Part shown: one piece after another, positions 30,001 through 49,884 of the stretch | Numbering within the stretch: position 1 is the stretch's first letter | Layout: each line of letters opens with the position of its first letter | Origin: an uncultured virus (IMG/VR IMGVR_UViG_3300015607_003969) | Taxonomy: Duplodnaviria; Heunggongvirae; Uroviricota; Caudoviricetes | IMG/VR virus record: IMGVR_UViG_3300015607_003969 | Span: 1 to 64,000 of that record | Direction: 5' to 3' (one strand) | DNA length: 64,000 bases | The notes under the pieces: generated by a model | What the model was told of the DNA's origin: nothing | Seen by the model: only the letters and a program-made list of their open reading frames with translations | Database searches by the model: none | Made by a program: the position numbers and the translations under genes

Positions 30001-30038
30001 ACCAAGACCTCTTCAAAACTTTTGGACTTGATAGCCAT
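27003..30038 (-). CDS. terL: Terminase large subunit (GpA-like), intein-containing
   Basis: After intein removal: Walker A GRQVEK|ST, RG...LDLDELQD Walker B, SGTP, CxxC pairs, FYNEVLG, nuclease AGIDWG and DDAFHS; start may be 30077. Confidence 0.85.
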   Translation of the reverse strand: MAIKSKSFEEVLVDDEFDDPGEFNSDEGVDGPDIGDLGTSVIETTLSEFVQAVLTIPDAEGRFAPFSFHGRRHMIPIYDTPARDILLMCGRQVEKCVGARTPILLPSGEVQEIRHCKVGQRVVTLKGEGVLGEGEVVWVSPERRKPCLKLTTRTGHQLVCAKTHPIRTWGAWTEAKDLVVGDKVASVRKLNAPDLYAASARPPFDEAQVFKILWTAIALGPCVHRDPGYQVVCRTTTIRRAVEESLFNLGYTEDADYRVYLRTPGSNPSFYLGVDCRSVLSVLDSTTAGATIPSWVFKSSAEEQRLFLRYLWACAGTVHVSLAGSISIRFMDQRHTLLDSLQRLLWRSGIPTSRRVQRVAGQEYGYLRVETSDGISRMNTILCEEQKYQHEPGQSRSPYDTFPDGLNRDLRLLLDDAQAPSLRQLKTKIDRAFTPDRLKALVGKLQGLKLHPHRLNAMQQHADTDLLWDNIVSIEPVGDVKCLDIQVSPGHSFVANGLVTHNSTYLGNRALALCALIPGYKVLYVSPSAQQTKTFSTDRLKLPVETSAVLKALSKGATQNVLEKEFNNGAKVVLRSAFLSADRVRGQAAYLLDLDELQDLISDHIPVIEPAISHAPKLYQSRCYSGTPKSMNNHIEERWSGLNREGRHRSTMGEWLVPCDRCGSKAKTAGGRFWQALGEKNIGKKGLICSRCGKLIQAQHPDAGWYHQHPEGEFEGYRIPQLMAAWIDWEKILHAYNTYPPQQFYNEVLGLSLDAADRPLTSSEINACCDPRISMTGAFRGTTYIHPEHFLPSVWSNPVFAGIDWGFGTSSYTILSLGTYLNGKFTVFYMKRFTGAEASDFQLQMNIIVEILTRFQVKICGTDFGFGAQQNDTLMRIFGPGRIQVYQHLARAKYKVEYDRKIHRWKLYRTLVMADHINAIKRKAVVFPRWEEFGGSFAEDFTNITAEYSETQRVVVYDHASNKTDDAFHSYLYLFLASQVAIKRPDILVPTVIGTPGQHPIFVSMDPIDQS
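28533..29753 (-). mobile_element. Intein (407 aa) in the terminase Walker A, degenerate LAGLIDADG
   Basis: K|CVGART...THPI...FVANGLVTHN|S. Confidence 0.9.
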
Positions 30039-30255
30039 GATTCGTTCAGCAGGGGAAGAGTGCTGGACAGGGTCCACGCTGTCCAGAGACGACGGCCTAT
30101 TTCTTCAGCTCAAGCACCCGCTGGACCGCGCCGTTAAGGAAGCTCTTCGGGAGCTTGTTGCTAGCTACGCCAAACAAGCCGGGTTGTCCGTGTACCTATC
30201 GATCAAGCCGGGCTACGTGAAGTTTTCGAGTAGGCCGACTCAACGGCGTCGTTGA
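30037..30255 (+). CDS. Small hypothetical protein divergent from terL
   Basis: 72-aa ORF with amphipathic helix LDRAVKEALRELVASYAKQAG, filling the gap between minus-strand genes. Confidence 0.4.
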   Translation: MIRSAGEECWTGSTLSRDDGLFLQLKHPLDRAVKEALRELVASYAKQAGLSVYLSIKPGYVKFSSRPTQRRR

Positions 30256-33640: not shown

Positions 33641-34267
33641 TCAGGCCGGCGGCATGTCGAACAGTACTGAAGCTCCAGCATAAAACCCCGGGGCTTTGCT
33701 AACAATCACCAAGATGTCCACGGTATCCCCCGGGGCCAGGCCTGCATCGGAGTAGTCGTGTGCTGCGATGGCGGACAAGGCGGTGGACAATCCCTGGCCC
33801 GTGCCGGCGTACAGGGCAGCAGGGCCCACGCTGAGGGCCCCCTTCACCTGTGCAAGGAGGTCGAGGGCGCTCAGCTTCACGCCCAGGGCAAGGTCGAGGA
33901 GCAGGTTTATGGCCCCGATCTTGGCTTGCAGCGCTGCGATCAGGGACAAGTTTGCCGAGGCGCCGATAGCGATGCTAGGCGGCACCAAGCCAGCTGCCAG
34001 GGCAGCCTCAAGCTGGACCAGGGCAGCGGCAGCCGCCTTGATGGCCCCCGTGAGCAGAGCTGTAGGGTCTGTGATCTCGACATGTACATTGAGCGCGGCT
34101 TGCAGCTGAACTGCGTAATCTAGCTGTAGCGCACCCATACCGAACTGTGCGTTCAGGAAGGCGTCGATCTGCGCGAGCAGCGGGATCAACCCGAGGATGG
34201 CCAGGCGCGCACCTACATTAATCTCTCCGAGGGTGCCCGAAACCCTGAGCGTGTAGGGTGTAGGCAT
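33641..34267 (-). CDS. Ala/Leu-rich helical probable virion protein
   Basis: TGATG coupling with the spike gene. Confidence 0.55.
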   Translation of the reverse strand: MPTPYTLRVSGTLGEINVGARLAILGLIPLLAQIDAFLNAQFGMGALQLDYAVQLQAALNVHVEITDPTALLTGAIKAAAAALVQLEAALAAGLVPPSIAIGASANLSLIAALQAKIGAINLLLDLALGVKLSALDLLAQVKGALSVGPAALYAGTGQGLSTALSAIAAHDYSDAGLAPGDTVDILVIVSKAPGFYAGASVLFDMPPA

Positions 34268-35535
34268 CAGGGCACCTTGATAGCTGTCTGTTGCGTCACC
34301 TGGATCTGCCCCACCAGGTTGCCCGTTGGAAAGGTGAGGATGCCCGCAAAGGGTTGCCCGTTAAGCGTTCCGGTCACAGGCGCTGAAGGTATCGGCAGGA
34401 TCACCTGGTCTCCTTGAGCTGCGACAGGCCTCGACCCCCCTTGGAAGATAATGGCGCTGGACTCGAATCTCAGCGCGTTCTTGGCCTGAATGACGGCCTC
34501 ATCTCCGACACTCAGCCCGAGATTTAGAGCCTCAATGGTGAGCGTCTTCCCCACGCGGACCGTAAGGTTCTTGCGCACCCGGACAAGGGCGCTGGACTCA
34601 GACCTGAGGAAGAACCCGCCGTCCTTGTCGAAGAAGAAGCGAAAGACGGAGAGCTCCTTGCTGCCCGAGTCGACCTCGTCCCCGTGCTCCCCCGGCTGGA
34701 AAGCTTGGGCAGCCAGCACGACCTCCAGGCAGATCTCCTTCTCGCCGATCGCCAGGTCAGCGAGCGTGGAGCTCTCGCTTTTGTCATCGGTAGGCTCGCC
34801 TAGCTCGGAGACGACCCCGTAGCGGATACGCATGTCAGCGTACTTGTCCCCCGCGTACAATCGGTAGGTTTCCGTCTTCTGCGTGGGGTCTTTCTGCCTA
34901 CGTTGCACACCCCAGTGCACGCTGCCTCCGGAGGTCTGCGCCTCGTACTCCCGGAACACGTCGAGCATCTTGTCAGATAGCGGCAAGTAGACGCGCTGGC
35001 AAAGCGCGCCGGACCCGATCTCCAGGATGCCAGAGGAGCGAAGTACGATCTGGGTGTTGCCGTCGTGCCCTCGCCAGAACATGTCCCCCTCGTCGCCGTC
35101 GGGGCGATTAGCCGCGTAGGATGCGGCGGCACGCGTACTGCTTTTTTTAGCTACGCCTGCTTGCTCCCCCTCCTCTTGTGCGATCTGGCCTTCCGTCGTC
35201 TCGGCGGGGCCATCTGACGCGGAGGGGCCTCGGCCCTGCACAGGAGCTACGAAAGACTGGACGAAAGGTGGAGACGTGTCACTCGGGATGGTCACGTAGG
35301 CGATCGCCTTCTCCAAGGCGTGCGCGAACCACCCTGCACCCCCCTGAAAGTGGACGTAGGGCGACCCCACGGGCACGTTCAGGAAGGTCTTCCGGTCGAA
35401 GATGCTGACCAGATCGACCGTGTAGTTCTTCGTGTCGCACCGGACGACGCGACACCGGAGGACCAGTGCTGCGGTAGCCCCGTCGAGCTTGATCGGGGAG
35501 CTTCGTTGCGGGTTGGGGTGTCCTGGAAGGGGCAT
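34267..35535 (-). CDS. Probable baseplate spike protein (gp5/gpV-like)
   Basis: N-terminal OB-like RVVRCDTKNYTVDL..NVPV; beta-repeat region; C-terminal GGSRPVAAQGDQV. Confidence 0.55.
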   Translation of the reverse strand: MPLPGHPNPQRSSPIKLDGATAALVLRCRVVRCDTKNYTVDLVSIFDRKTFLNVPVGSPYVHFQGGAGWFAHALEKAIAYVTIPSDTSPPFVQSFVAPVQGRGPSASDGPAETTEGQIAQEEGEQAGVAKKSSTRAAASYAANRPDGDEGDMFWRGHDGNTQIVLRSSGILEIGSGALCQRVYLPLSDKMLDVFREYEAQTSGGSVHWGVQRRQKDPTQKTETYRLYAGDKYADMRIRYGVVSELGEPTDDKSESSTLADLAIGEKEICLEVVLAAQAFQPGEHGDEVDSGSKELSVFRFFFDKDGGFFLRSESSALVRVRKNLTVRVGKTLTIEALNLGLSVGDEAVIQAKNALRFESSAIIFQGGSRPVAAQGDQVILPIPSAPVTGTLNGQPFAGILTFPTGNLVGQIQVTQQTAIKVP

Positions 35536-35537
35536 GG

Positions 35538-38500
35538 TCAGTAGTCGAAAGGTCGATTCTTGCCCTTAGTCTCTACCCCAGGCTTGCCGAACTCTGCCCC
35601 ATAAGCAAGTCCGGGCACCGGGTGCGAGCCGTGGAGCCGGCTGACAGCCCCGAGCGCAGCGTTCTCCTTGAGCGTGCCCCGGAGCCTCTGGTGGTTGAGC
35701 ACAGCCATCCAGTCGGTCGTCGCAGCCAGGGGCAGCATGTCCACGCCCATGAGCACGGGGCTGTGCTCCACCGGAGGCTTACCCTCTGCAACCCTCTCGG
35801 CGTTAACCTTCTTCAAGGAGGACCGAGGATAGAACTGCCCGCGGAGGAAGTCCGGGTGATCGTGAGGGTCCACGATCTTCGTGACGTTGCCCATCGCCTT
35901 CACGACCACCTCGATGGCGCGCTTACGAACCCCCTCCGACTCATAGAGTTTGTGCATCTCATCGGACAGAAAGCGCTGAACCCGCGGCATGTCGTGGGTG
36001 GCCTCGTAAAGCCTGTGCGGGTTGATCATCGTGCGGTTTGGATCGCTGAGCATGTCCCCGCGCTTCACCTCCATGCCCACCTTGGGCGGGGACCAGGGCT
36101 GATACCCGGGCACGGAGTCCGCATGAGGAAGGTCCTCGTGCAGGTAGTGGCCATCCGGGTCCTTACCCACGAAGTGACGATGGTCTCCCACGAACACCTC
36201 GGCTCCGGTAGGCGTGGGTACGATCTTCGTCACCTTGCCATTCACGTTGACGAGAGAGGCGCTGTTGGGCGTCTTGTCCGGCAAGAAGGTGAGCTGTTCG
36301 AGGCGCTGGAAGCTACCCACAGCCCCACCCTTACGGTCCGTAGCGACACCGCCGGAGTGAAACGCCTTCAGCGTCAGCTGCACAGCTCGCTCACCCAAGG
36401 CGTGCGCGCTGAGGACGCCGATATTCGTGCCCAGGTCGTGATGCTTGCCGTTGGACGACAGGCCAAAGCACTTCTGGCAGACCCCCTTCTCGCTATCGCA
36501 GGTAAGCGGGGACCTGACCGTAAGCTTGGCCCCGGGATCCACGGAGACGATGTGATCCAAGGTCTTCTTGTCGAGGAGGGTGCCTGCGGGCAGGTGGAGG
36601 GCTCCCAGCTTCAGGTCTGCCGCCAGATGCCGGTCCACCACGTCCTTATGCGTGGCAGGCATGGAGATGCCCGCCTTCGTCCCACAGTCGTGGCTATCGA
36701 TCAGGTAGGACATCGAGGTGTTCTGGAGGAGCTTGGTCATGTACCCAGGGTCCTGCACCTCCTGCACCTTCTTGACCGCGCCGGAACGCGCACCGTAAGC
36801 GCCGATCCAGTACTCATGCATCTTCAACCCCTCCCCGAAGGAGTGAACGATCGGCGTGGGGATGAGGCGATCCGCGCTGTCTTTCATGACGACAGGCGCA
36901 AGCCGCAGCTGCTGGTACTGGTCGTCGCTCGGCTTGACGCCAGCCTCGTTCATGCGCTTGAGGCTGTTGTCCGGGTCCCCCGTCTTCTTGTGCCGCTCGC
37001 GCATCTCGGCGGAGGCCTTGAGGTAGATGTCGACCGTGCGGCGGTCCTTCTCCGCCTTGCTCAGGCCCTTCAGAGCTTCCACGTCAGCGTGTGCCTTCTG
37101 GAGCACGGGGTCACGCGCTTCCTTATCAGCGAAGAAGTCGGAGAGCCCAAAGGAGTGCGCCCCGACAGGCACAACGGCGTGCTTGGTCAGGGGAGTCCTT
37201 ACCAGACCAGACGCAGCCCCGTAGCCAAGCTCCTTCATCTTGTCAGCGAAGACGGGGAAGTCCTTCGCGTGCGCCTTGCCGACCTCGGAAAACAGACCCT
37301 TCAAGGCCTTGCCGTTGAAGGAGAGCCCAAGGTCTGTGCGCACACGATGCTGCATGGCCTCCGGCATAGCCTCTGCCAGAAGAATCCTGCCAGCCGTCGT
37401 CTGTTCGCCTGCCACATGGATCTTGTCCGACACCGTGATCTTCTGGAGCGCTAGGGCGTCAATAGCGGCGTGCTTGTCAGGGAACTTATGGTTCGTGTCC
37501 GCCCCGACCCTGCCGAGCTTGTGCAGCCCTAGCTGGGCCTCCATGGAGGGCGTGTAGGCAGGAGCTCCGGTGGTCTCGTTGAACAGGTTCTTGGAGGGGA
37601 GCATCTTGATGGCGTCGCTCACCTCGTCGTGCGATGACGGCACGTAGACGCTCATCGTGTCCCAGACGAGGAGACCGTCGTCCATCACGAAGTTGAGGCT
37701 TTCGTCCACGGTGAGGTCGTAGAGCTCTTCCTTGTCGCCAGTCTCCTTGACGGAGACGATCTCATCCCAGAATAGGCCGCCCCCGACGGTCATGCGATAC
37801 CAGGCCTGCACGAACGACGTGGGGTTCTTGTGGGCTTCGTAGAGTCGCGCAGCCGTGGAGCGCTCCACCCATCCGGACTGCACGCCTTCTCCAATCTCGT
37901 CCGCCACCCAGGCAGGGAAGGGCACCAGATCGACCATGGTGCTCTTACCCCCCTTGCGCCAGAGCCTCTTGCGATTCCACGCGCTGGGCTTGAACCAGGA
38001 GGCCTTGTAGAGCGAATCCCTGCACAAGAGCACAGAGTCTCGCTCCTCCCTGCACGGCACCCCCACGCTGCGCAACAAGTTGCAGAGGGCGCGGGGGTCA
38101 GTCGTATCGACACGCGCCGTGTCGATGTCCAGAGCCGCCCCCAAGAACCCCGTAAGGACACCCTGCCTGAAAGCTGTGGGCCGGATGATCGCAGACTCAA
38201 GGAGCGTGCGAAGAAGGGTAGTCGACCGGTACTTCTGGGGAGGGGTGCAGCGCTCCTGAGCCAAGGGGTTGCCGTCGTAAAGGGCAAGCTCCTCCCCCAA
38301 CGCATGGCCAAGAGCCTCCGTAGCTTTCTCCTCCCGGCCATGGACTGGGATACTGGGGCTCAGGTGCTCCTCTACACGGCCCAACACGGGTACGGCTGCC
38401 CCCACGGAGTTTGCGGGCTTGCAGTTGGTGGCGGTGAGCGTAGCCGTATCCAGTACGGCAAGAGAGTGGTCCTGGGAGCAGATCACCTTGCGTCCAGACC

Positions 38501-41500
38501 GGAAGGTGACCTCCCAGGCGACGCACCCAGGATGGACGCTGAAGGAGCGCACCGCACACGGGCGCATGGAGCCGTTCACCATGCCAAACACGTAAGTGCT
38601 GGGCGGGACATCGTACTCCTTCGTTCCGCCCAGCGAGCGATGCTCCGACCCAGCCACCCTCGGGAAGTCCTTGATGTCGCAGGATCGAGCCAGCCAGGTG
38701 CCGTGAACGCGCTCGGCCAACAGGACGCGCCCCTTGATGCTGTCCCCGTCGTGGTCCGCGTTAAACCCGCCGGTTACCAGCGGGTGCAGCTTGATGGCGT
38801 TGCCGGGGATGGCCTGGGCGTAGAAGGCCTGGATAGAGTACTTGTGCAGAGCGGGGTCTCGCTTGATCAGGACAGGGCGCTCGCTCAAGACCTGATTGAG
38901 TGCGGACCAGACGGAGGGGTCCGATTTGCCGCGCTCCACCTGGCTGAGGACCTCCTGGGCTTCCAGCGTAGTCTTGGACCTTCCGGACTTGACGAGCTGG
39001 TTGACGACGAAGGGCCGGAACAGGGTCAGCGCCTGCTTTTCGGGCAGCCCGACCTGGTCGAGGTGGAGATCCGGTCCAGGGATGATCACACCTCGGGCGC
39101 TCATGTCCTGGCGACGCGACAGCAACCCCTGCTGGAAGAGACCGAGCTTGGGTGACGTGCCGTGGATCTGCTGGAGAAGGCCTTTCTGCTTAGCCCCCTC
39201 CGGCAGAGCTCCCGCGCCGAACAGGGCCTTGACCCCGTCGTAGACCGCCATACGGAAGGGAGCCTTCTCTGCCTCGGGCAGGTACGCCATGGCGGGGTGG
39301 CCGAGCTTGCTGTTGATCTGCCCAAGCTTCATGTAGAAGCCGTTGGTGTCCTCGAAGCGAAGCGCGCCGTCTTCCATGACGGAGAGGGGGCGCAGCTTGG
39401 GGGGCAGCACCGGCACGTTGTGCAGCACATAGGCCTCTTCGGGCTTTAGCCCGAGCTTGTCGAGGGCCTGGAGGTACCGCGCCTTCCTATAAAGGGCGTC
39501 TGCCGTGGAGGGTGGGGCCTTGTTCAGGGCTGCCTTGGTCTTCGAGAGCTCATCCGCCACCTTGATGCCCTTGAGCATCTCCTCGATAGCGTGGCCGCCC
39601 ACCTTGCCGTTGACCTTGACTTTGCCCTGGAGAATCTCTTCAAAACGGGGCCCCGTGATGCCCAGGAGCTTCTTGATGGGCTCTTCGAAGATAGGGTTGG
39701 GGAGGGGCTCCGACAGGGGGATGTGAGACCACTTGGTTCCGCCGTGGCCCCCCGTCATCTTCTCGTCGAAGATACCTCCGGTAATCGGCTTGTACTGGTT
39801 GGTGGTCGGGTCCATCTTCGAGTGGACCGCAGAGGCCGCGTCCTTGATCGCACCGGCACTCATCGATAGGACTTGCTTGTCCGTCATGGGGGATAGAAAG
39901 AACTCGGACCCCTTCTTCTCGACGTTAATGCCAGCGCCCTTGAGCATCTCCGTGAAGCGGTGGAAGGCAAACGTCGGCTTAGGGGGCGGCAACGGCAGAC
40001 CTTTCTGCATCGCCATCCAGGCCTCTACGTGCTGACTCTTCCACTTCTTGGCCTCATCGGTCTCCGGGTCCTCACCCTCGGACTTGTAGGTCATGGCCGC
40101 GCGGAGGATGTTCTTCGCCCCGTGCGCGAGCAGGGCGTACATGCCGAGCTGGCCGTAGCTCTGTCCGCCGGTACCTCCGCCAGAAGCCGGGGCAAAGGTA
40201 AGGGAGTCGTACTTCTCGTCGGAGGGCAGCTTGGGGAGCCCCATGCCTGCGCGCACGGAGTTCTTCTTTGCAGCTTGGTGCACGAGCTTGATGAAGTGCT
40301 GAGGCCCGACCAGGACCTTGCCCAGGCTCTGCCCCGTCTTCGGGTCGATCAGCTCCTCCTTGTCGGAGATGCCGTGCTCCTTGAGCTCCTTGGCCATCTT
40401 CTGACTCCAATCCTCGACGTGAGGATCGAAGTTCTTGACCACGTACGTCTTGCCAGTCTTCTCAGCGATCTTGCCGGCCAAGGTCTCGTACACCTGGCCC
40501 ACGTTCATACGGCCACCCAACCCTAGCGGGTTGAAGATGATGTCCACGGGTTTGCCGTCTTTGGTCTTGGGCGCCTCGTGGTCCGGGATGATGTAGCCGA
40601 CAACGCCCTTGCCGCCGTGGCGGTTGCTGTTGCCGCTCCAGCAGGGCTTTCCGTTACGACGCACGTAGAGGACGTGACCGGGGACCGTTACACAGAAAAC
40701 AGGGCCTGTGTAGTTTTCGATGATCCTCTCACTCTGCGCGTTCTGCTTCTTGGCGTGGTGGTGGTTTACCTCCGGAGCCAGTTTGCTGTTGATGATCCGA
40801 ACGGTGTAGCGCTCCGACGCCCAGTAGGTCCGGCCGTTTTGTTCGAACGCGTGGGCTGGATCAACCTTGATGTTGGCCGCCTTACCGATGTGCAGACAGA
40901 GGCGCTGCACATCATCGGCCAGCCGACGAGACGTGGTGGTGTAGCAGATAGGACGATCATTCTTCGTGTGGCCGTCCCCCCACATGAGCCACCGGAAGAG
41001 CACGTCCAAGTCGTCCTTCGGGTAGTCGAAGACTTCGTTTGGGATGAACTTGTCCTTGCACTTACCGAAAGTCTGGAAGTGCGCCAGGGCTTCCTTGGAG
41101 TGGATCCGGGCACGATCAGGGGTCTTGGTGTACCGAACCCCCATCCTATCGAGCTCGGCAAAGAGCTCCTCTCTGCCCGTGGGCTTCACCTGGGCGATGT
41201 CGATGCCGTAGGTGCCAGACTCCGGAGCATTCACGCAACAGCCTTCGGACAAAAACATCCCAAGGAGAGCCAGGTAGTCGCGGCCCGTAAGCCCCAACAC
41301 CCCGGAGCCGTTAACGGCAGCGGCACGACCTGCCCAGTTGCCGTCTTTCTTGTAGCGGACGCGCTTACCAAGAAGAGTGTCGGCCCTCACCAGCTTGTAG
41401 GGGCGCTCGCGGTCACGGGTGGACTCTTGCACGTACATCCGGTGGTTTGCGGTCACAAGAAGGTCGATCTGTTGCGTCTCCAACGAGTACATCCGACCCC

Positions 41501-43952
41501 CTTCTGCGTAGCTGTGGACTTCGGAAGGGCGGCTGTAGCGGATCTCCCCGTCAAGCAGGGTACAGACCTCATCTTGCAGGTTCACCTTGGACACAGGCTT
41601 CCAGCCTGTGCGCGTAAGGACCTCGGTATTTTCATCGAAGCAGAGCTTGTCAGCGATCTGCAAGGGTTCCACAGATTTGACGTGTATGTGCACCCCCTTG
41701 GGGCTTTTATGCACAGCGACGACCTCGCCCTCGGTCTCACCCTCCCAGCGAAGGCTCTTGTCCGTGTGCTGGCTGGTGAGGCTCTTGCGGAGAGCCCCCA
41801 CACCTACGCGGTCCTTGAGGGTGAAAGGCTGAAGTGCGAGGAGCAGCGGATCCCCCGGCTGTACCTTCGACCCGACCTTGGGGAAGCCCTGGTCATCCAG
41901 GTGCTCGTACTGCTCCTTGCGGTACAGACCAGGGTTGGTGTTCTGGAACTTGGTCTTGCCGAATACGGTGCGGTCGTCCGTGTTCAAGAAGTGCTTGGTC
42001 AGGTGCACGCTGGAGAGCTTCTTCGCAGCGCTCTCCGTGACCACCATGGAGTCTTCGAAGTTCTTGCCGAAGTACGGCATGTAGGCCACACGCAGGTTCT
42101 TACCCGGCGCGAAGACCCCGCCTCGGGTGAAGTTCGTATCGGCGAGGGGCTGGCCCGTCTTTACCTTGTCCCCCTCCTTAACAAGGGCCTCCGAGTGGAA
42201 CACGCTCTTCGAGTCGTTCAGGGGGTAGTTATGGTAGAGCTGAACCACGGCGCTCTTACCGTCCGCCCCCTTCACGTGGATGGCGTGAGGCGTGACCTTG
42301 GTGACGACGCCGTCGTGCGGGGCGAGGTGCCCGATCTGGTGCCCGAATAGCTTCTCGAAGGTGTCACCGGCCGGCCCTGCCACTTGAACGAGGGGCTTGT
42401 CCCTGTCCTTCAAGGAAATGCTTTGCTCCATGTGACGGATGGCCATGCTGACGCGCCCGCCGCTGTTGTTCTGCACAAACGGCACCATGGCGGAGGTGAG
42501 GGCGAACATGTTGGACGGGCTACGCATGACGTAGTCCGCCTCATGGAGCGGGCCCTCGACGATCTCATTGTCCTTGCCGAGAATCTTCACCTTCTTTGCG
42601 ATCGGCTTGGGGTGCCCATCCACAAACTCCACCTGGTCTGCCAGGGCCACCTTGCTCTTGTAGGCGGTGGCAGGGCTGACCCACTCCATCTTCTTGGTGC
42701 GGTTGTTGTAGAGGGGGATGTGGGGCTGATCTCCAATCAGCTTCACTCCGATGGGAAGGCGCAGGGACACCCCCGTGTTCGAGCCTTCCGGCGTAGCGAA
42801 GGGGTCGATAAACCCCAGGTGCGACGGGTTGATGTACTTGGCCTCGTCCGTCACCTGCGTCTCCGACCTGATGCCGCCGGGGCCCATAATCGTCGTCTGC
42901 ATGGCCGTGCCCAGCATGTCGAGCGGGCTCACCTGTTTGGCCGGGTTGACCAGAGCACTCTGGAACAGGGCGCTGACCGCGGGGTTCAGGAACCCTGGCG
43001 TGACGATGTCGTGCAGCTTGTCCGACCCCTTGTTCAGCTGCCTCGACATCTTCATCTTCACGTTGGGTACCGCTGCTTTGATCTGGTCATGCAGCAGCTC
43101 CCCCGTGGCCCTGAGCACCTTGAAGGGCAAGGCGTCACGGTCGTCCTCGGGCTGGCCCGCCTGCACGGCAAGCAGCCTCTTGGATGCACGGGTGAGGGCA
43201 TCCCCCTCCACGCTTTCGAAGCGCTTACCCAGGGTGATCTCCGTCACATCGGGGTGGAGTTTGCTGGCCGCCATGACCTTGTGCAGGTTATCCAGCGCCT
43301 GCTGTTCCGTCGGAGACCCCTGCGTGTTGGTGCTGGTCCTGTAGAACTGCGCGAGCGTGCTGGAGTTACGCCTGTTCTTGGCGTTGGCCTCCCAGATGTC
43401 CTTCCCCCAAGCCTGCTGAAGCTCCGTGTCGGTCACCCCCATCGCCTTGAGGATGGGGTACGCGGGCATATTGGCCTTCTTGTAGAGGATAGAGAACTGG
43501 TTGGTCGGGGGGTCAAAGGTAAGGTCAAAAGCGGCCCTGCCCGTCACGTTGAACTGCGTACGCAGTTCGCCGTTGCTCCTGCGCCGGGTGTAAGCGCCAG
43601 GCCGAAGCTGCCATTGGTTGGCCACCTGGTGCTCTTGACCGCGGTAGATGTAGCTGAGCCGGTTGGTGGTCCTGGGAAGGTCCAAGATCTTGATCTTCTT
43701 GCGATCGAGAACCTCCCCCTTCTCGTTCTTGAGCACCATGGTCCCATGGACGGGGATGGACCAAGTCTCCTCGCCTAGCTTGGCCTTGTACTGGGATCCG
43801 ATGTCGTGAGGATCCTTGGCCGCCGTATCGATGTGCAACGCCTCCAAGTGCAGAGACTTGTCCCGCCCCCGCAGGGGGAACACGCCATTCAGCGCGGTCA
43901 CCGTGTGCCGGACAACGTTGTCGAAAGCCTCGTCTGGGTCTTGGAAGGCCAT
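35538..43952 (-). CDS. rpoBC: Fused beta-beta' two-barrel RNA polymerase with two inteins
   Basis: beta motifs GPGGI, HPS-like NPSHLGFIDPFATPEGSNTG, GKNFEDS, DKL|SNRHGGKG, RMNVGQVYE; beta' motifs VPVLPPKLRP, RQDMSARGVI, KRDPALH, NADHDGD, GARSG, RSPLTC..VCQKCFG, QLTLKAFHSGG. Confidence 0.95.
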   Translation of the reverse strand: MAFQDPDEAFDNVVRHTVTALNGVFPLRGRDKSLHLEALHIDTAAKDPHDIGSQYKAKLGEETWSIPVHGTMVLKNEKGEVLDRKKIKILDLPRTTNRLSYIYRGQEHQVANQWQLRPGAYTRRRSNGELRTQFNVTGRAAFDLTFDPPTNQFSILYKKANMPAYPILKAMGVTDTELQQAWGKDIWEANAKNRRNSSTLAQFYRTSTNTQGSPTEQQALDNLHKVMAASKLHPDVTEITLGKRFESVEGDALTRASKRLLAVQAGQPEDDRDALPFKVLRATGELLHDQIKAAVPNVKMKMSRQLNKGSDKLHDIVTPGFLNPAVSALFQSALVNPAKQVSPLDMLGTAMQTTIMGPGGIRSETQVTDEAKYINPSHLGFIDPFATPEGSNTGVSLRLPIGVKLIGDQPHIPLYNNRTKKMEWVSPATAYKSKVALADQVEFVDGHPKPIAKKVKILGKDNEIVEGPLHEADYVMRSPSNMFALTSAMVPFVQNNSGGRVSMAIRHMEQSISLKDRDKPLVQVAGPAGDTFEKLFGHQIGHLAPHDGVVTKVTPHAIHVKGADGKSAVVQLYHNYPLNDSKSVFHSEALVKEGDKVKTGQPLADTNFTRGGVFAPGKNLRVAYMPYFGKNFEDSMVVTESAAKKLSSVHLTKHFLNTDDRTVFGKTKFQNTNPGLYRKEQYEHLDDQGFPKVGSKVQPGDPLLLALQPFTLKDRVGVGALRKSLTSQHTDKSLRWEGETEGEVVAVHKSPKGVHIHVKSVEPLQIADKLCFDENTEVLTRTGWKPVSKVNLQDEVCTLLDGEIRYSRPSEVHSYAEGGRMYSLETQQIDLLVTANHRMYVQESTRDRERPYKLVRADTLLGKRVRYKKDGNWAGRAAAVNGSGVLGLTGRDYLALLGMFLSEGCCVNAPESGTYGIDIAQVKPTGREELFAELDRMGVRYTKTPDRARIHSKEALAHFQTFGKCKDKFIPNEVFDYPKDDLDVLFRWLMWGDGHTKNDRPICYTTTSRRLADDVQRLCLHIGKAANIKVDPAHAFEQNGRTYWASERYTVRIINSKLAPEVNHHHAKKQNAQSERIIENYTGPVFCVTVPGHVLYVRRNGKPCWSGNSNRHGGKGVVGYIIPDHEAPKTKDGKPVDIIFNPLGLGGRMNVGQVYETLAGKIAEKTGKTYVVKNFDPHVEDWSQKMAKELKEHGISDKEELIDPKTGQSLGKVLVGPQHFIKLVHQAAKKNSVRAGMGLPKLPSDEKYDSLTFAPASGGGTGGQSYGQLGMYALLAHGAKNILRAAMTYKSEGEDPETDEAKKWKSQHVEAWMAMQKGLPLPPPKPTFAFHRFTEMLKGAGINVEKKGSEFFLSPMTDKQVLSMSAGAIKDAASAVHSKMDPTTNQYKPITGGIFDEKMTGGHGGTKWSHIPLSEPLPNPIFEEPIKKLLGITGPRFEEILQGKVKVNGKVGGHAIEEMLKGIKVADELSKTKAALNKAPPSTADALYRKARYLQALDKLGLKPEEAYVLHNVPVLPPKLRPLSVMEDGALRFEDTNGFYMKLGQINSKLGHPAMAYLPEAEKAPFRMAVYDGVKALFGAGALPEGAKQKGLLQQIHGTSPKLGLFQQGLLSRRQDMSARGVIIPGPDLHLDQVGLPEKQALTLFRPFVVNQLVKSGRSKTTLEAQEVLSQVERGKSDPSVWSALNQVLSERPVLIKRDPALHKYSIQAFYAQAIPGNAIKLHPLVTGGFNADHDGDSIKGRVLLAERVHGTWLARSCDIKDFPRVAGSEHRSLGGTKEYDVPPSTYVFGMVNGSMRPCAVRSFSVHPGCVAWEVTFRSGRKVICSQDHSLAVLDTATLTATNCKPANSVGAAVPVLGRVEEHLSPSIPVHGREEKATEALGHALGEELALYDGNPLAQERCTPPQKYRSTTLLRTLLESAIIRPTAFRQGVLTGFLGAALDIDTARVDTTDPRALCNLLRSVGVPCREERDSVLLCRDSLYKASWFKPSAWNRKRLWRKGGKSTMVDLVPFPAWVADEIGEGVQSGWVERSTAARLYEAHKNPTSFVQAWYRMTVGGGLFWDEIVSVKETGDKEELYDLTVDESLNFVMDDGLLVWDTMSVYVPSSHDEVSDAIKMLPSKNLFNETTGAPAYTPSMEAQLGLHKLGRVGADTNHKFPDKHAAIDALALQKITVSDKIHVAGEQTTAGRILLAEAMPEAMQHRVRTDLGLSFNGKALKGLFSEVGKAHAKDFPVFADKMKELGYGAASGLVRTPLTKHAVVPVGAHSFGLSDFFADKEARDPVLQKAHADVEALKGLSKAEKDRRTVDIYLKASAEMRERHKKTGDPDNSLKRMNEAGVKPSDDQYQQLRLAPVVMKDSADRLIPTPIVHSFGEGLKMHEYWIGAYGARSGAVKKVQEVQDPGYMTKLLQNTSMSYLIDSHDCGTKAGISMPATHKDVVDRHLAADLKLGALHLPAGTLLDKKTLDHIVSVDPGAKLTVRSPLTCDSEKGVCQKCFGLSSNGKHHDLGTNIGVLSAHALGERAVQLTLKAFHSGGVATDRKGGAVGSFQRLEQLTFLPDKTPNSASLVNVNGKVTKIVPTPTGAEVFVGDHRHFVGKDPDGHYLHEDLPHADSVPGYQPWSPPKVGMEVKRGDMLSDPNRTMINPHRLYEATHDMPRVQRFLSDEMHKLYESEGVRKRAIEVVVKAMGNVTKIVDPHDHPDFLRGQFYPRSSLKKVNAERVAEGKPPVEHSPVLMGVDMLPLAATTDWMAVLNHQRLRGTLKENAALGAVSRLHGSHPVPGLAYGAEFGKPGVETKGKNRPFDY
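37659..38741 (-). mobile_element. Atypical intein (361 aa) immediately after NADHDGD
   Basis: D|SIKG...CSQDHSL (block B)...LYDLTV..NFV..GLLVWD|T. Confidence 0.85.
40629..41642 (-). mobile_element. Intein (338 aa) with LAGLIDADG endonuclease in the RNAP beta region
   Basis: L|CFDENTEV...TANHRM; LLGMFLSEG and LMWGDG; WSGN|S. Confidence 0.9.
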
Positions 43953-46577: not shown

Positions 46578-46613
46578 CACATCCCCCTCCCCCTCCTTCG
46601 GGAGGGGGATGTG
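46578..46613 (+). other. Strong intergenic hairpin
   Basis: CACATCCCCCTCC / GGAGGGGGATGTG, with an alternative CCCTCC-TTCG-GGAGGG register. Confidence 0.5.
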
Positions 46614-46629
46614 TGCACCCTGGAGCGAC

Positions 46630-47847
46630 ATGCCAGAGCCTACAGAGTTCGTGTCCGCGCGAGCGCGCCTGAAGAGGCAGTTCCCGTACTTCGCCAGCGT
46701 CATCCATCTCCTGTCTCCGTACCCGACGGAGGCGGTTGCACAGATGGCGCTGTCCTCTAAGCACGTGCTCGCGTACAACCCGAAGTGGTTCGGCGCCCTC
46801 TCTCTCGACGAGGCCGCCGGGGCACTTCTACGCATAGTGTTCCATGTCGTCTACGACATGGTCTACCAAGACAAAACGGACGGGTTCAAGGAGGCGGCCC
46901 TGTACAAGGCCGACTTCCTGGCCGCCAACGAGGCGGTGCACCGCTCCTCGATGCGGCTACCCCCCGGCTACATCAAGGCGTCGGACGTGGGGATGAGCGG
47001 CACCCTCCTCGACCTGTACCGCCACATCGAGACGAAGGGCGAGCCCTCGATCGAGGAGCAGATCCTCGCGCTGCTGTTCAAGCTCAGCCCCAACCCGATC
47101 CGGCACCCCGGCAACTACCGGTGCGACGTGGAGGACGACGAGCTCAACGATAAGTTGAACGCCCTCGTACCTTCCAAAACGCAGGCGCACACGCGGCACG
47201 CGGCCGTCGCCCTGGCCAACGACATCGCGCTGCAAGGCGGGTCCGGGCGAGGCTCTGTGCCCGGCGACATCGCGGAGTGGGCCCGCGTCACCGTCGCGCC
47301 GCCCAAGATCCCGTGGTACTCCCGGCTTGCCTCAAGCCTCCGGGCCACGGTGAGCTCTGCCAACACGGCGCACAACAGCATGGCCTCCTACAGCAGGCCG
47401 CACCCGATGACCTTCGTGAACGACTGCGGCATCATCTACCCGGGTGAGATCGGCAGCACGGCCAAGGTCGTCGTGATCATCGACACGTCGGGCTCGATGG
47501 GCGGTGAGCAGGTCACCATCGCCATCCGGGAGATCCGAGGGGTCCTGATGGGGCTCGGGCTCCACGAGCTGCTGCTGCTGCAAGCAGACACGAAGGTCCA
47601 CAAGGAGCAGATGCTCACCGTCGACGATCTGAACACCGGGAAGTTCCAGATCGTCGGCAGGGGTGGCACCGACTTCGTTCAGCCCCTGGCGAGGGCTGCC
47701 GAGCTCGGCGCCGAGGCCGTGATCTACATGACGGACGGTGATGGCGCCTGTCCGCCCAAACCGCCGACCTTCCCCGTGCACTGGTGCCTGATCGGCGCCA
47801 ACAAAGAGACCAAAATGCCCTTCGGCAAGCAGGTCATCGCCGACTGA
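46630..47847 (+). CDS. vWA-domain partner protein (DUF2201-like)
   Basis: IDTSGSM MIDAS, GRGGTDF, YMTDG; N-terminal YNPKWF..L segment typical of the peptidase-like domain. Confidence 0.8.
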   Translation: MPEPTEFVSARARLKRQFPYFASVIHLLSPYPTEAVAQMALSSKHVLAYNPKWFGALSLDEAAGALLRIVFHVVYDMVYQDKTDGFKEAALYKADFLAANEAVHRSSMRLPPGYIKASDVGMSGTLLDLYRHIETKGEPSIEEQILALLFKLSPNPIRHPGNYRCDVEDDELNDKLNALVPSKTQAHTRHAAVALANDIALQGGSGRGSVPGDIAEWARVTVAPPKIPWYSRLASSLRATVSSANTAHNSMASYSRPHPMTFVNDCGIIYPGEIGSTAKVVVIIDTSGSMGGEQVTIAIREIRGVLMGLGLHELLLLQADTKVHKEQMLTVDDLNTGKFQIVGRGGTDFVQPLARAAELGAEAVIYMTDGDGACPPKPPTFPVHWCLIGANKETKMPFGKQVIAD

Positions 47848-47850
47848 GCG

Positions 47851-47894
47851 CACGGACTTCCGGGGGGAAAGTCCGTGTTTTTTAGCCCCTAAAA
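47851..47894. terminator. Terminator at the convergent vWA/portal junction
   Basis: CACGGACTT...AAGTCCGTG hairpin followed by TTTTTTAGCCCC. Confidence 0.65.
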
Positions 47895-49884
47895 CAGAAG
47901 CCCTTCTCGGAGGGAGTTTCTCCGGCAGGGGGGCCATATCCACAGCGGGCTGTTGGACCGCGCCTGGGCCGGAAAGGGTGGGACTAGCCCCCATTTCTTG
48001 AAGCTTCTGCATGACCATGGCGTAGAGGTCGGGGCTTTGCTGCTGGAGAGCCTGCAACATGGAGTTGGCCTCTTGCGGCTGCATCTGCGAGATCTGCTTG
48101 GCGTAGGAGGCCGCAACCATGTCCAGACCCGCGGATGGCCGGTTCGCAGAGCTCTGCGTAAGTTGGCTTGAAATGACGTTGTTGAACTGATCGACAGCGT
48201 CTGGGGCGGGGGCAGCGCCACCCTGGCCGGGGGCTGCCGGGGGCTGCTGTTGGGCAGCCTGCTGCTGCGCTTGCTCTGGGGTCAGCGAATCTGGTGCTCC
48301 CGGCTCCCCGGGGAGCGGGCCTTGCTGCATAGCCTGCTGAGCCTGACCGTTCTCCGCTGCCGTCGCGGCGCTCAGTGCAGCTACTTCCGCCTGGAGCTTG
48401 GCTGCGCCGATCTGTTGCTTCTTCTGTAGCTTGAGCTGGTCATCGATCTCCCGTTCAGATCGCTGCATCTCCTGCTTGTAGTCGAAGTCCATCTGGCCAA
48501 GCCAGGTCTCCCGGGACATGGTGTTGAGCTGGACAGCCTGCAAGAGCAGCTGCTGCCTCTGCATGTCATCTGCCATACGGAAGGGCTTGAAGTGCGCATC
48601 GACCTCGGGCCAATCGAGGGCAACGCGCAGCTGCTCCACGACAAAGCGCAGAAGGGCCTTGTGTTCCTCCAGGTACCCGAGGAAGAAGTTCTCCACCGCG
48701 CGCATCGCCACGGTACCGCCTGACCAGCTTGCTCCCCCGAAGATAATCTCTTTGGGGACGCCGAGCTGGACCACGATGGCCTCGGCCTTGGACTGGATTT
48801 GCTGATCCAGGAGCAGGGCCTTCCCCTCGCCACCAATGGTCTGTTGGCCTATCGGTAGGGGCATGACAGGGATGTACGCCGGATCCCACCTCCAGCGCGC
48901 GATCTCCTTCGACATCTGCTCCTTCCACAGGGGCAAGGAGGTCATCGTGTAAGGGTCCGCAGAGCCCGCACCGGGCTGAGGGAAGATCGTGCGCAGGGGC
49001 TGGAGGTGCTCCATCAGAATCACCTCGTTCGCCTTCTGTAGCACCTGCATCTGAAACCCCTCCTTGATCACGCAAAGGAGGAGCGGGATGCCCCAGCCGC
49101 GATCGAACCCTGAGATAGAGGGGCGGGCCATGTGAAACAGCTGCTCATAGGGGATAGTCACCCCGATGTTCTTCCTGGCGGCCTCGATGAACGTCTGGGG
49201 GATCTCCTCCACCACGTGCTTGCGCCCCATGATGATGTCATTGCGCAAGTGCCCTGGAAGATCGTAGTAGAACGTCTTGTGTCCGCTCACCTCGTTGTAC
49301 CGGATGGTAATGGCTTCCGGGTTCCAACGGATGAGGCGTGCCCCCGAGGCCACCTTGGTGGTCACGTCGTGCACCTTAGCGGGCCCTGAGTGCTTACACT
49401 TCGGGCAGGTCAGGTTGAAGTCATGGCCCGAGAAGGTCCAGTGGTCCCTGCAAGACCTGGCCGCGCTCTGCCAGCCACACCCCGTACACCTGAGGAACTT
49501 GGTGAAGGGGTAGCGAAGACTTATGAACGCGTTCCCGTAGACGAAGTAATCGAGGCCTACTTCGAGCTGAAAGAGCCGGTAGCGCAGGTGCTCCTGGAAG
49601 TACCGCTGCCACTTCCGGGAGATCTCTTCGTTCTTGCCCTCGAAAAAGAGGGCCGTGATCGGGTACTCCGCGAGCTTACTTACGACGACGTTGAAGAACC
49701 CGTTGAGCAAGAAGTAATGCCGAAGCCACCTGAAGAGGGACTTCATGTTCTGCGGCATATACGTAGTGGCCAGATCAAACCAGGGGTGTGGGTACGCGAT
49801 ACCCATGCTCTCCCCGCCCTGGATCCGGCCACGGGTCCTGGAGTATCTGGTCGAAGACCCGGCTACGGCTGCGTCAGCGAACAT
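47890..49884 (-). CDS. Probable portal protein (ends at TTA 47892-47890; standard code runs to 47332)
   Basis: DYFVYGNAF, FHM..S...GWGIP, LGVPKEIIFG portal-like motifs; Zn-ribbon insert; Gln/Pro tail. Confidence 0.7.

Follow-up and report, generated by a model that had tools for sequence, protein, structure and literature searches.

A single-chain beta-beta' RNA polymerase gene with two inteins in an uncultured tailed phage, and a phage sigma factor as its probable partner

The fused RNA polymerase gene

The DNA considered here, referred to as the window, consists of positions 1 to 64,000 of IMGVR_UViG_3300015607_003969, an IMG/VR virus record of 125,659 bp from an uncultured tailed phage (Caudoviricetes), with an estimated completeness of 67%. 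Its minus strand carries one long open reading frame (ORF) that encodes subunits beta and beta' from a bacterial-type RNA polymerase (RNAP) one after the other in a single chain that is interrupted by two inteins (Table 1). The original prediction, made without database searches, had described beta and beta' in one uninterrupted ORF with an extein of 2105 amino acids (aa), and taking both inteins out of the 2804-aa frame does give exactly that length. The chain is also, as had been stated, well below the size of bacterial beta plus beta', which together amount to 2749 aa in Salmonella and to 2440-2934 aa in stop-to-stop translations from 14 other bacteria. The description as a streamlined single-chain enzyme fits with the seamless junction between a trimmed beta of 1011 aa and a trimmed beta' of 1094 aa.

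In Pfam searches, the first half of the ORF matched the beta domains Rpb2_3 and Rpb2_6 (E 4.1e-47) and the second half the beta' domains Rpb1_2 (E 2.2e-21) and Rpb1_5 (E 3.6e-16), all above their cut-offs, together with a weak match to Rpb1_1 (20.2 bits, cut-off 39.7) and with matches to Intein_splicing and LAGLIDADG_3. A search of solved structures returned bacterial beta' (E 1e-86) and beta (E 4e-45) as the best matches. Identity to Salmonella beta and beta' is 25-28%, and identity to phage relatives reaches 68% over a 629-aa segment at the junction. The fold predicted for this segment agrees with that of beta' chains from bacteria; its AlphaFold model, made for the segment in isolation, has a mean predicted local distance difference test (pLDDT) score of 61.7, is poor in the beta part and reaches 80-92 in the beta' part, and served to check the beta' fold only.

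At the junction, the C-terminal motif of beta (...FHRFTEMLKGAGINVEKKGSE) runs directly into FFLSPMTDKQVL..., the equivalent of about residue 20 of Salmonella beta', and the alignment leaves no linker between them. The string GGIFDEKMTGGHGGTKWSHIPL, quoted in the original prediction, corresponds to aa 1392-1413 of the 2804-aa protein. With regard to the integrity of the gene, public runs from three studies besides the probable source hold 89-92% of the sampled words, and were used as assembled contigs rather than raw reads; none of the public runs listed with the sequence is an RNA run. Contigs from these three independent studies (4 runs) tile the RNAP gene with single-base differences only and 0 indels. 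One of them (X6 record 21, window positions 39765-40489) bridges the beta/beta' junction, and all four intein borders are crossed by contigs. The frameshift or stop codon at the junction that the original prediction had raised against itself is thus not seen at the contig level. The junction segment is, furthermore, 100% identical in a second record of 162 kb, with an estimated completeness of 87%.

Catalytic residues, lost regions and the rifampicin pocket

Residues were mapped in Salmonella numbering on an alignment of 22 phage rows and 15 bacterial rows. The aspartate triad is kept (D1733, D1735 and D1737), as are the equivalents of beta K1065, K1073 and H1237 (K769, K1115 and H1225, respectively) and the trigger-loop His936 (H2532), and the clamp helices are retained; the spliced enzyme is presumably active. 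The catalytic motif reads NADHDGD at aa 1731-1737, just as had been reported. This is a minority state that is found in 9 of the 120 best relatives, 97 of which have NADFDGD, and the cultured Salmonella phage Arash has a tyrosine at this position.

The N-terminal zinc (Zn) finger cysteines of beta' (Salmonella C70, C72, C85 and C88), said to be missing in the original prediction, indeed fall into gaps at all four positions; the gaps recur in all 22 phage rows, and the cysteines are present in all 15 bacterial rows. The C-terminal Zn site is kept, again in agreement with that prediction. The fusion and the loss of the Zn ribbon are both family-wide traits and not peculiar to the window gene. 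Several other regions are missing in at least 80% of the fused phage rows, among them beta 225-306, 321-359, 938-1049 and 1127-1180 and beta' 937-1116, which we take to be the lineage-specific inserts SI1, SI2 and SI3. By the same measure, the phage rows lack beta' 68-99, that is, the Zn ribbon, which all other sampled bacteria possess, as well as beta' 152-173, beta 393-407, beta' 829-838 and both beta' termini, where residues 2-19 and 1363-1384 are absent.

In the rifampicin pocket, seven positions were checked (513, 516, 526, 529, 531, 533 and 572), and at all of them the phage residue departs from one that does not vary among the 15 bacteria. Since these positions are, presumably, sites of rifampicin resistance, the phage RNAP would be expected to be insensitive to the drug.

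Inteins

The borders of the two inteins were set by aligning the protein with L006 and L007, intein-free relatives of about 2070 aa each, and by a position count. Class 1 inteins are characterised by Cys1 or another N-terminal nucleophile, a TxxH block, a C-terminal His-Asn and a +1 nucleophile. Intein 1 has Cys1 (CFDEN...), the TxxH block in the form TANH and a C-terminus ...WSGN that is followed by a +1 Ser, and intein 2 has Ser1 as its N-terminal nucleophile, a splicing domain and a +1 Thr (TMSVYVP). No endonuclease domain was detected in intein 2 when it was scanned alone. Its Trp-Asp end, followed by Thr, is common to nine inteins at the catalytic-loop site, namely that of the window and eight in different relatives, and protein splicing with a C-terminal Asp is known. 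As the GC content at third codon positions (GC3) of the inteins (0.76 and 0.81) is near that of the exteins (0.82-0.85) and the unusual end of intein 2 is shared among relatives, the inteins look maintained, and we infer that both leave by protein splicing.

The RNAP gene of this family is an intein hot spot. All 26 relatives longer than 2250 aa among the best 120 carry one to three insertions of at least 100 aa, and the recurrent insertion sites lie, in the coordinates of relative P0012, at 1411/1412 after the catalytic loop (18 proteins), at 773 (7), at 1850/1851 (6) and at 386/387 (3).

Some further observations concern the inteins of relatives and of the sample. Several inteins at the catalytic-loop site of relatives start with His, Gln, Tyr or Thr, not with Cys or Ser. 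In P0065, P0066 and P0107, the motif NADFDG-N (GADFDG-N in P0065) is followed by an intein that starts with Cys, the precursor having Asn for the third catalytic Asp. One low-depth X6 contig omits 1222 nucleotides (nt) around intein 2 (window positions 37606-38827), a gap that exceeds the 1083-nt intein, with 31 nt on one side; its source may be a relative without the intein that is present in the sample. The large terminase gene (TerL) contains an intein of its own (Intein_splicing at aa 156-515, LAGLIDADG_3 at aa 315-388), and the window thus holds at least three inteins in two essential genes.

Family and phylogeny

A search with the 629-aa junction segment among proteins of 1542-4907 aa, with clusters at 90% identity, gave 7999 scored candidates, 1080 of which reach E<=1e-10. 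Among the 120 best relatives, all but one (119) span 93% or more of the segment within a single chain, at about 48-68% identity, and with regard to length 87 of the 120 have 2040-2200 aa, 26 exceed 2250 aa and 7 are shorter. When shorter proteins were searched, the best full-coverage matches were of the type found in Arash (beta plus the front of beta'), with 1430-1526 aa, together with a few beta-only proteins of about 1115-1140 aa. From IMG/VR, 63 distinct family loci were returned, and ten records that are at least 91% complete have one ORF with RNAP beta domains each, of 1993-2842 codons in nine of them and 1469 in the tenth. In a scan of genome contigs, the 80 loci kept comprised no integrated family member and were all ordinary rpoB-rpoC loci of bacteria, with identities of 29-39%.

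A tree was built from 39 rows and 1934 columns (LG+G4, quick search), comprising 25 phage rows and 14 bacteria of 7 phyla whose loci came from the contig scan. Phage and bacterial rows are parted by one branch of length 1.2, with a Shimodaira-Hasegawa-like approximate likelihood ratio test (SH-aLRT) support of 100. The phage enzymes are therefore placed outside the sampled bacteria and not inside an ordinary bacterial clade, a point for which the original prediction had proposed a phylogeny. Within a clade of 12 fully fused proteins (support 99), the window protein forms a pair with P0007, to which it is 58% identical; the fully fused L009 branches apart near the base, and the split (Arash-type) and beta-only forms make up one clade (support 98). 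The tree, whose root is not fixed and which has some long branches, suggests that the fusion dates far back in the family, with splitting as a later event. The fused gene of Helicobacter groups with that of the unfused Aliarcobacter inside the bacteria, and the phage fusion is for this reason independent of that of Helicobacter.

Two side observations concern the edges of the family. Three beta-only proteins (about 1115-1140 aa) nest within the Arash-type split clade, and in this one sub-lineage the link between beta and beta' has seemingly been broken again. The label of P0091, a family member of 2045 aa, assigns it as a hypothetical protein to a 13.6-Mb contig of Pendulispora rubella, possibly a sign that a myxobacterium carries an integrated copy or a prophage. 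No P0091-like member was recovered at E<=1e-150 from 401 sampled genomes of the phylum of a Polyangiaceae metagenome-assembled genome, a stricter first look that says little.

Cultured relatives and virion proteins

The best matches in a phage collection are the Vibrio phages D181, D148 and D69 and the Salmonella phage Arash (OQ632216), with about 30-32% identity. The Arash-type lineage shares with the window the fusion of beta to beta', the lost Zn ribbon, a portal gene upstream and a homologous sigma factor, and the homologues of the window phage in Arash include TerL, portal, fused RNAP, sigma and helicase (tblastn E 2e-28 to 6e-98). The two phages are otherwise distant: only 9 ORFs of the window record match Arash at E<=1e-5, and the identity between the RNAPs is about 32%. 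In Arash, beta and the front of beta' together make up gp206 (1525 aa), and gp216 (606 aa) supplies the back of beta'; the cut lies about 100 residues past the catalytic loop and the back half 4.8 kb away, whereas beta' of the window is unbroken and the chain carries two inteins. The Arash record labels gp206 as 'subunit beta', and the fusion is not mentioned in the extract of the Arash paper used here (PMC10585845; this and the papers cited below are drawn on in extract). Arash also has a second, longer sigma factor, gp196 (345 aa, locus L016 6656-7693), for which no homologue was seen in the incomplete 125.7-kb record.

In virion preparations of Arash, gp206 was the most-detected protein, with 3516 spectra, above the major capsid protein, and gp216 and the sigma factor gp10 were detected with 1210 and 467 spectra, respectively, among 116 proteins in total (PMC10585845). 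The original prediction had considered a virion-packaged enzyme possible. The detection of the homologue gp206 in virion preparations makes this plausible by analogy, the packaging itself being what we infer for the window phage.

Sigma, alpha and omega

Outside the window, the phage encodes a factor of the sigma70 family (Table 1). It matches Sigma70_r3 with 37.2 bits (cut-off 25.3) and the FliA and WhiG models weakly; in this copy, region 4 is not matched at Pfam thresholds and region 2 is not matched by Pfam. The protein has 361 cluster representatives at E<=1e-10. Among 40 aligned relatives, region 3 is found in 36 and region 4 in 17, and a profile of these 40 aligns with SigA and FliA structures from region 2.3 to 4.2 (E 1.7e-18). 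Since the sigma alignment is too variable for a direct scan of IMG/VR, co-occurrence was followed in all 16 of the 63 RNAP-bearing IMG/VR loci that have a contig of at least 100 kb. The sigma factor is present in 14 of these 16 records, including all ten that are at least 90% complete, and the two without it are 55% complete. The use of a host sigma factor, one of the options in the original prediction, is not supported, as the phage carries a sigma70-family factor of its own that accompanies the RNAP in the near-complete relatives.

The same prediction had recognised no alpha or sigma gene in the window. For sigma this holds for the window only, while for alpha it extends to the whole record (G000), where no match to alpha (PF01000, PF01193), omega (PF01192) or sigma region 2 (PF04542) was found in 125,659 bp. 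Alpha was likewise not found in genomes G001 and G002. In ten near-complete relatives no alpha exceeded the cut-off, the sole match (12.4 bits) having two internal stop codons.

The pairing of sigma with the core was modelled in three runs from beta' residues 1378-1737 and the phage sigma factor, with alignments for both. The predicted complex scored 0.70 against 0.49 for the best control. Among solved complexes 116 of 157 attain such a mark, and among mismatched pairs 2 of 215. At least 40% of the contacts are common to the runs, and the pLDDT of the partner is at least 65. The predicted interface lies between RNAP residues ~1538-1569, which form the clamp helices, and sigma residues 35-80. 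This contact, which corresponds to the textbook pair of sigma region 2 and clamp, points to compatibility of the two proteins, and the pass may reflect their likeness to solved holoenzymes.

Relation to other RNA polymerases

The mReC group (PMC7481178) resembles the window phage in comprising uncultured tailed phages of IMG/VR whose beta and beta' were found by COG and Pfam models and lie outside the cellular clades. However, the mReC beta and beta' are separate, non-adjacent proteins, typically of about 1150 and 1415 aa, in the viral-contig table rows examined (supplement 5), whereas the window has one ORF. The mReC markers are TerL of PF03237 and the major capsid protein of PF07068 (PMC7481178), whereas TerL of the window matches PF05876 and no major capsid protein was located. 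In the extract of that paper used here, crAss-like phages are named as the fused case and neither sigma nor inteins are mentioned (PMC7481178). The IMG sample numbers of the family loci are absent from the mReC supplements.

The phiKZ/AR9-type phages also have two-barrel, cellular-type RNAPs without alpha or omega, one of these enzymes being packaged in the virion (PMC7598289). In these phages, beta and beta' are spread over four to five polypeptides, and there are two enzyme sets, no sigma homologue and a far greater divergence (PMC7598289), whereas the window family has one chain, one set per genome and a sigma70-family factor. In crAss-like gp66, YonO and the tape-measure-fused RNAP of P23-45, both barrels lie in one polypeptide, as in the window, and some of them travel with the virion. 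They are, however, too divergent for the COG and Pfam models of beta and beta' (PMC7481178), while the window protein aligns along both subunits. On the bacterial side, the rpoB-rpoC fusion of Helicobacter, which the original prediction had cited along with that of Wolbachia, has the same order, beta then beta', and in Helicobacter rodentium it forms one frame of 2908 codons. The Helicobacter fusion keeps a linker, the beta' N-terminus and the Zn ribbon, whereas the window protein is without all three.

Large phages have been described as two kinds, either with a split RNAP and no sigma or with a sigma and no RNAP (PMC7824862, PMC7598289). The present family, which joins a near-complete bacterial-type core in one chain with a sigma70-type factor and no alpha, corresponds to neither of them. 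A literature search of open full texts, with subscription-only papers outside it, gave no description of a fused, sigma-associated, bacterial-type phage RNAP.

Interpretation

The explanation that we prefer, and consider reasonably probable, is a self-contained holoenzyme of core plus sigma that is probably associated with the virion. The window gene would encode the sole RNA polymerase of the phage. Its precursor of 2804 aa would lose the two inteins to give a chain of 2105 aa, with 1011 aa of beta joined without a linker to 1094 aa of beta', that is, a core with the full catalytic set that has dispensed with the lineage-specific inserts and with the N-terminal Zn ribbon of beta'. The phage sigma factor would dock on the beta' clamp helices in the bacterial fashion, and the resulting two-polypeptide holoenzyme would transcribe the phage genes without recourse to the host core enzyme and unaffected by rifampicin, with the covalent beta-beta' tether taking over the part that the alpha dimer plays in assembly. 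The location of the gene among morphogenesis genes from portal to terminase, and the dominance of its Arash homologue in virion mass spectrometry, make it probable that the enzyme is produced late and travels in or with the particle, from which it would start the next infection. A more far-reaching version is put forward tentatively and may well go too far. It proposes a minimised two-polypeptide holoenzyme without alpha or omega, insensitive to rifampicin, that would be packed into the capsid and injected, one enzyme running the whole programme of these phages of about 190 kb, with a fusion that would be ancestral and re-split in the Arash branch.

A number of points weigh against the self-contained holoenzyme. 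The absence of a phage alpha rests mainly on the relatives, with the record 67% and its near-identical twin 87% complete, and the Helicobacter beta-beta' fusions belong to alpha-containing enzymes, so that a tether is no proof of independence from alpha. Intein 2 ends in Trp-Asp, not in the usual His-Asn, and if it stayed in place beside the Asp triad the enzyme would probably be inactive. The pass of the complex prediction is a narrow one, with sigma against an unrelated protein still scoring 0.49. As for promoters, a k-mer enrichment over 64 upstream regions of the 125.7-kb record gave weak signals only, such as GACCGAG in 6 of them, and a scan for the sigma70 consensus around the RNAP gene found 0 sites against 1.6 expected, with no shared promoter motif. 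The tree was made by a quick LG+G4 search with few bacterial phyla and without an archaeal or eukaryotic outgroup. The evidence on virions was obtained with a relative that shares only about 32% identity in the RNAP; moreover, the Arash preparation includes ribonucleotide reductase and other enzymes, and its authors offer a carry-over of proteins that are abundant during infection (PMC10585845).

This last point leads to a different view of the timing, in which transcription of the early genes, the RNAP gene among them, would fall to the host RNAP, and the phage core and sigma would take over as a non-virion middle or late RNAP, the Arash signal being carry-over. We regard it as unlikely on the whole, with an appreciable chance of being right, given that the carry-over alternative is stated by the Arash authors themselves, whose preparation holds many non-structural enzymes (PMC10585845), and that there is one RNAP set per genome where the phiKZ-type phages have separate virion and non-virion enzymes (PMC7598289). 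It has to contend with the rank of the RNAP as the most-detected particle protein of Arash, above the major capsid protein, with the detection of the sigma factor gp10 (PMC10585845) and with the location of the RNAP gene beside the portal gene in five lineages. Another question is whether the enzyme is self-sufficient, or whether the single-chain core assembles on the host alpha dimer and perhaps omega. Such a hybrid would suit a core of bacterial type for which no phage alpha was found, and the fused beta-beta' enzymes of bacteria keep alpha; we nonetheless hold it to be unlikely. Omega binds the beta' termini in bacteria, and it is these termini that are trimmed in the phage enzymes (beta' 2-19 and 1363-1384), while the phiKZ/AR9-type RNAPs work without alpha or omega (PMC7598289).

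That the phage sigma acts on the host RNAP, as proposed for those of T4-type and group 2 jumbo phages, and that the phage core relies on some other specificity factor, appears clearly improbable, even though phage sigma factors on the host core are the usual case (PMC7824862) and the control with an unrelated protein reached 0.49. The co-occurrence of sigma and fused RNAP in all ten near-complete genomes, a predicted interface at the canonical clamp-helix site of the phage core and the detection of both proteins in Arash particles (PMC10585845) argue for a pairing within the phage. Finally, an artefact is extremely improbable, whether a chimeric contig that contains a bacterial rpoBC locus or a pseudogene in decay with non-splicing inteins. 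The unusual C-terminus of intein 2 is all that speaks for it, and it would have to be reconciled with an open frame of 8.4 kb, contigs of three studies that differ by single bases only, phage neighbours, about 48-68% identity to phage relatives as opposed to 25-28% to Salmonella, a place outside the bacteria on the tree and conserved catalytic residues. Misassembly and bacterial contamination were rejected on the basis of the tiling contigs from independent studies and of the tree position.

To a large and uncharacterised family of phage RNAPs, the window contributes a member that is unsplit and laden with inteins. If active as a self-contained core with its sigma factor, the enzyme would be the simplest known sigma-dependent cellular-type RNAP, and would offer a tractable model of core assembly without alpha, a candidate orthogonal transcription tool and a data point on the origin of viral RNAPs. 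The intein insertions, most often located straight after the catalytic Asp loop, link phage transcription to protein splicing. The family is widespread, with more than 1000 clusters at 90% identity (E<=1e-10), and its cultured members, Arash and the Vibrio phages D69, D148 and D181, allow direct testing.

Genomic neighbourhood

Table 1. Features of the RNAP gene, its neighbours and the phage sigma factor (window positions unless a contig is named).
Feature	Position	Strand	Basis
RNAP gene, beta then beta' with two inteins	35538..43952	-	single ATG-started 2804-aa ORF, extein 2105 aa
beta module, aa 1-1349, 1011 aa without intein 1	39906..43952	-	alignment to cyanobacterial beta 32-764 and to Salmonella beta up to residue 1342
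Intein 1, aa 771-1108, 338 aa, LAGLIDADG homing-endonuclease domain, inserted in beta motif between ADKL and SNRHGGKG	40629..41642	-	LAGLIDADG_3 39.7 bits
beta/beta' junction, aa ~1330-1413, also site of the missing Zn ribbon	39714..39965	-	alignment, independent contig
beta' module, aa 1350-2804, 1094 aa without intein 2	35541..39905	-	alignments
beta' clamp helices, aa 1538-1569, predicted docking site of phage sigma	39246..39341	-	alignment; interface residues 430-461 of the 629-aa segment
Catalytic loop NADHDGD, aa 1731-1737, intein 2 directly after	38742..38762	-	position count, alignment
Intein 2, aa 1738-2098, 361 aa, Ser1 ... Trp-Asp then Thr	37659..38741	-	Intein_splicing 41.5 bits, cut-off 35.8
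Second beta' Zn site, retained: C2423, C2485, C2492, C2495	36468..36686	-	alignment
422-aa ORF abutting the RNAP stop codon, candidate baseplate hub/spike (lead)	34267..35535	-	protein-language features 0.94-0.96 to Phage_base_V or Gp5_OB clusters
662-aa ORF, also downstream of RNAP in L006 and L007	31640..33628	-	synteny comparison
Large terminase, 1024 aa, own intein with LAGLIDADG domain	27003..30077	-	Pfam
Portal gene, 850-aa ORF, aa 32-475 homologous to Arash portal gp204	47332..49884	-	homology search
Phage sigma70-family factor, 255 aa, outside the window	G000:C1:103703-104470		Arash gp10 homologue, 31% identity, E 1.5e-23

The assignment of the enzyme to a phage, made in the original prediction, is supported by the genes found near the RNAP gene, which encode TerL, portal, DnaB, primase, DNA polymerase and helicase, and by the origin of the DNA in an IMG/VR virus record. 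TerL matches PF05876 and phrog_675, not PF03237. The placement within a structural cluster, proposed at the same time, seems reasonable, the RNAP gene lying between portal and terminase and beside a candidate baseplate-hub gene. The portal-then-RNAP order is shared by the window, Arash, L006, L007 and L009. The 422-aa ORF has no Pfam or PHROG match, and an Atlas search with the 662-aa ORF gave no usable match; PHROG and Pfam scans of the four ORFs between RNAP and TerL and of those between RNAP and portal returned nothing but DUF2201. No tRNA genes were found in window positions 1-64000, whereas Arash has a large tRNA cluster. The genomes of relatives have about 180-195 kb, and the phage is seen in wastewater and freshwater metagenomes.

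The last 516 nt of the portal ORF overlap a convergent ORF on the plus strand (46609-47847) with DUF2201 and VWA-like metallopeptidase domains, and within the overlap GC3 is 0.90 in the plus frame and 0.59 in the portal frame. Because GC3 in the overlap favours the plus frame and the portal matches end at aa 475, the long tail of the portal ORF may be non-coding.

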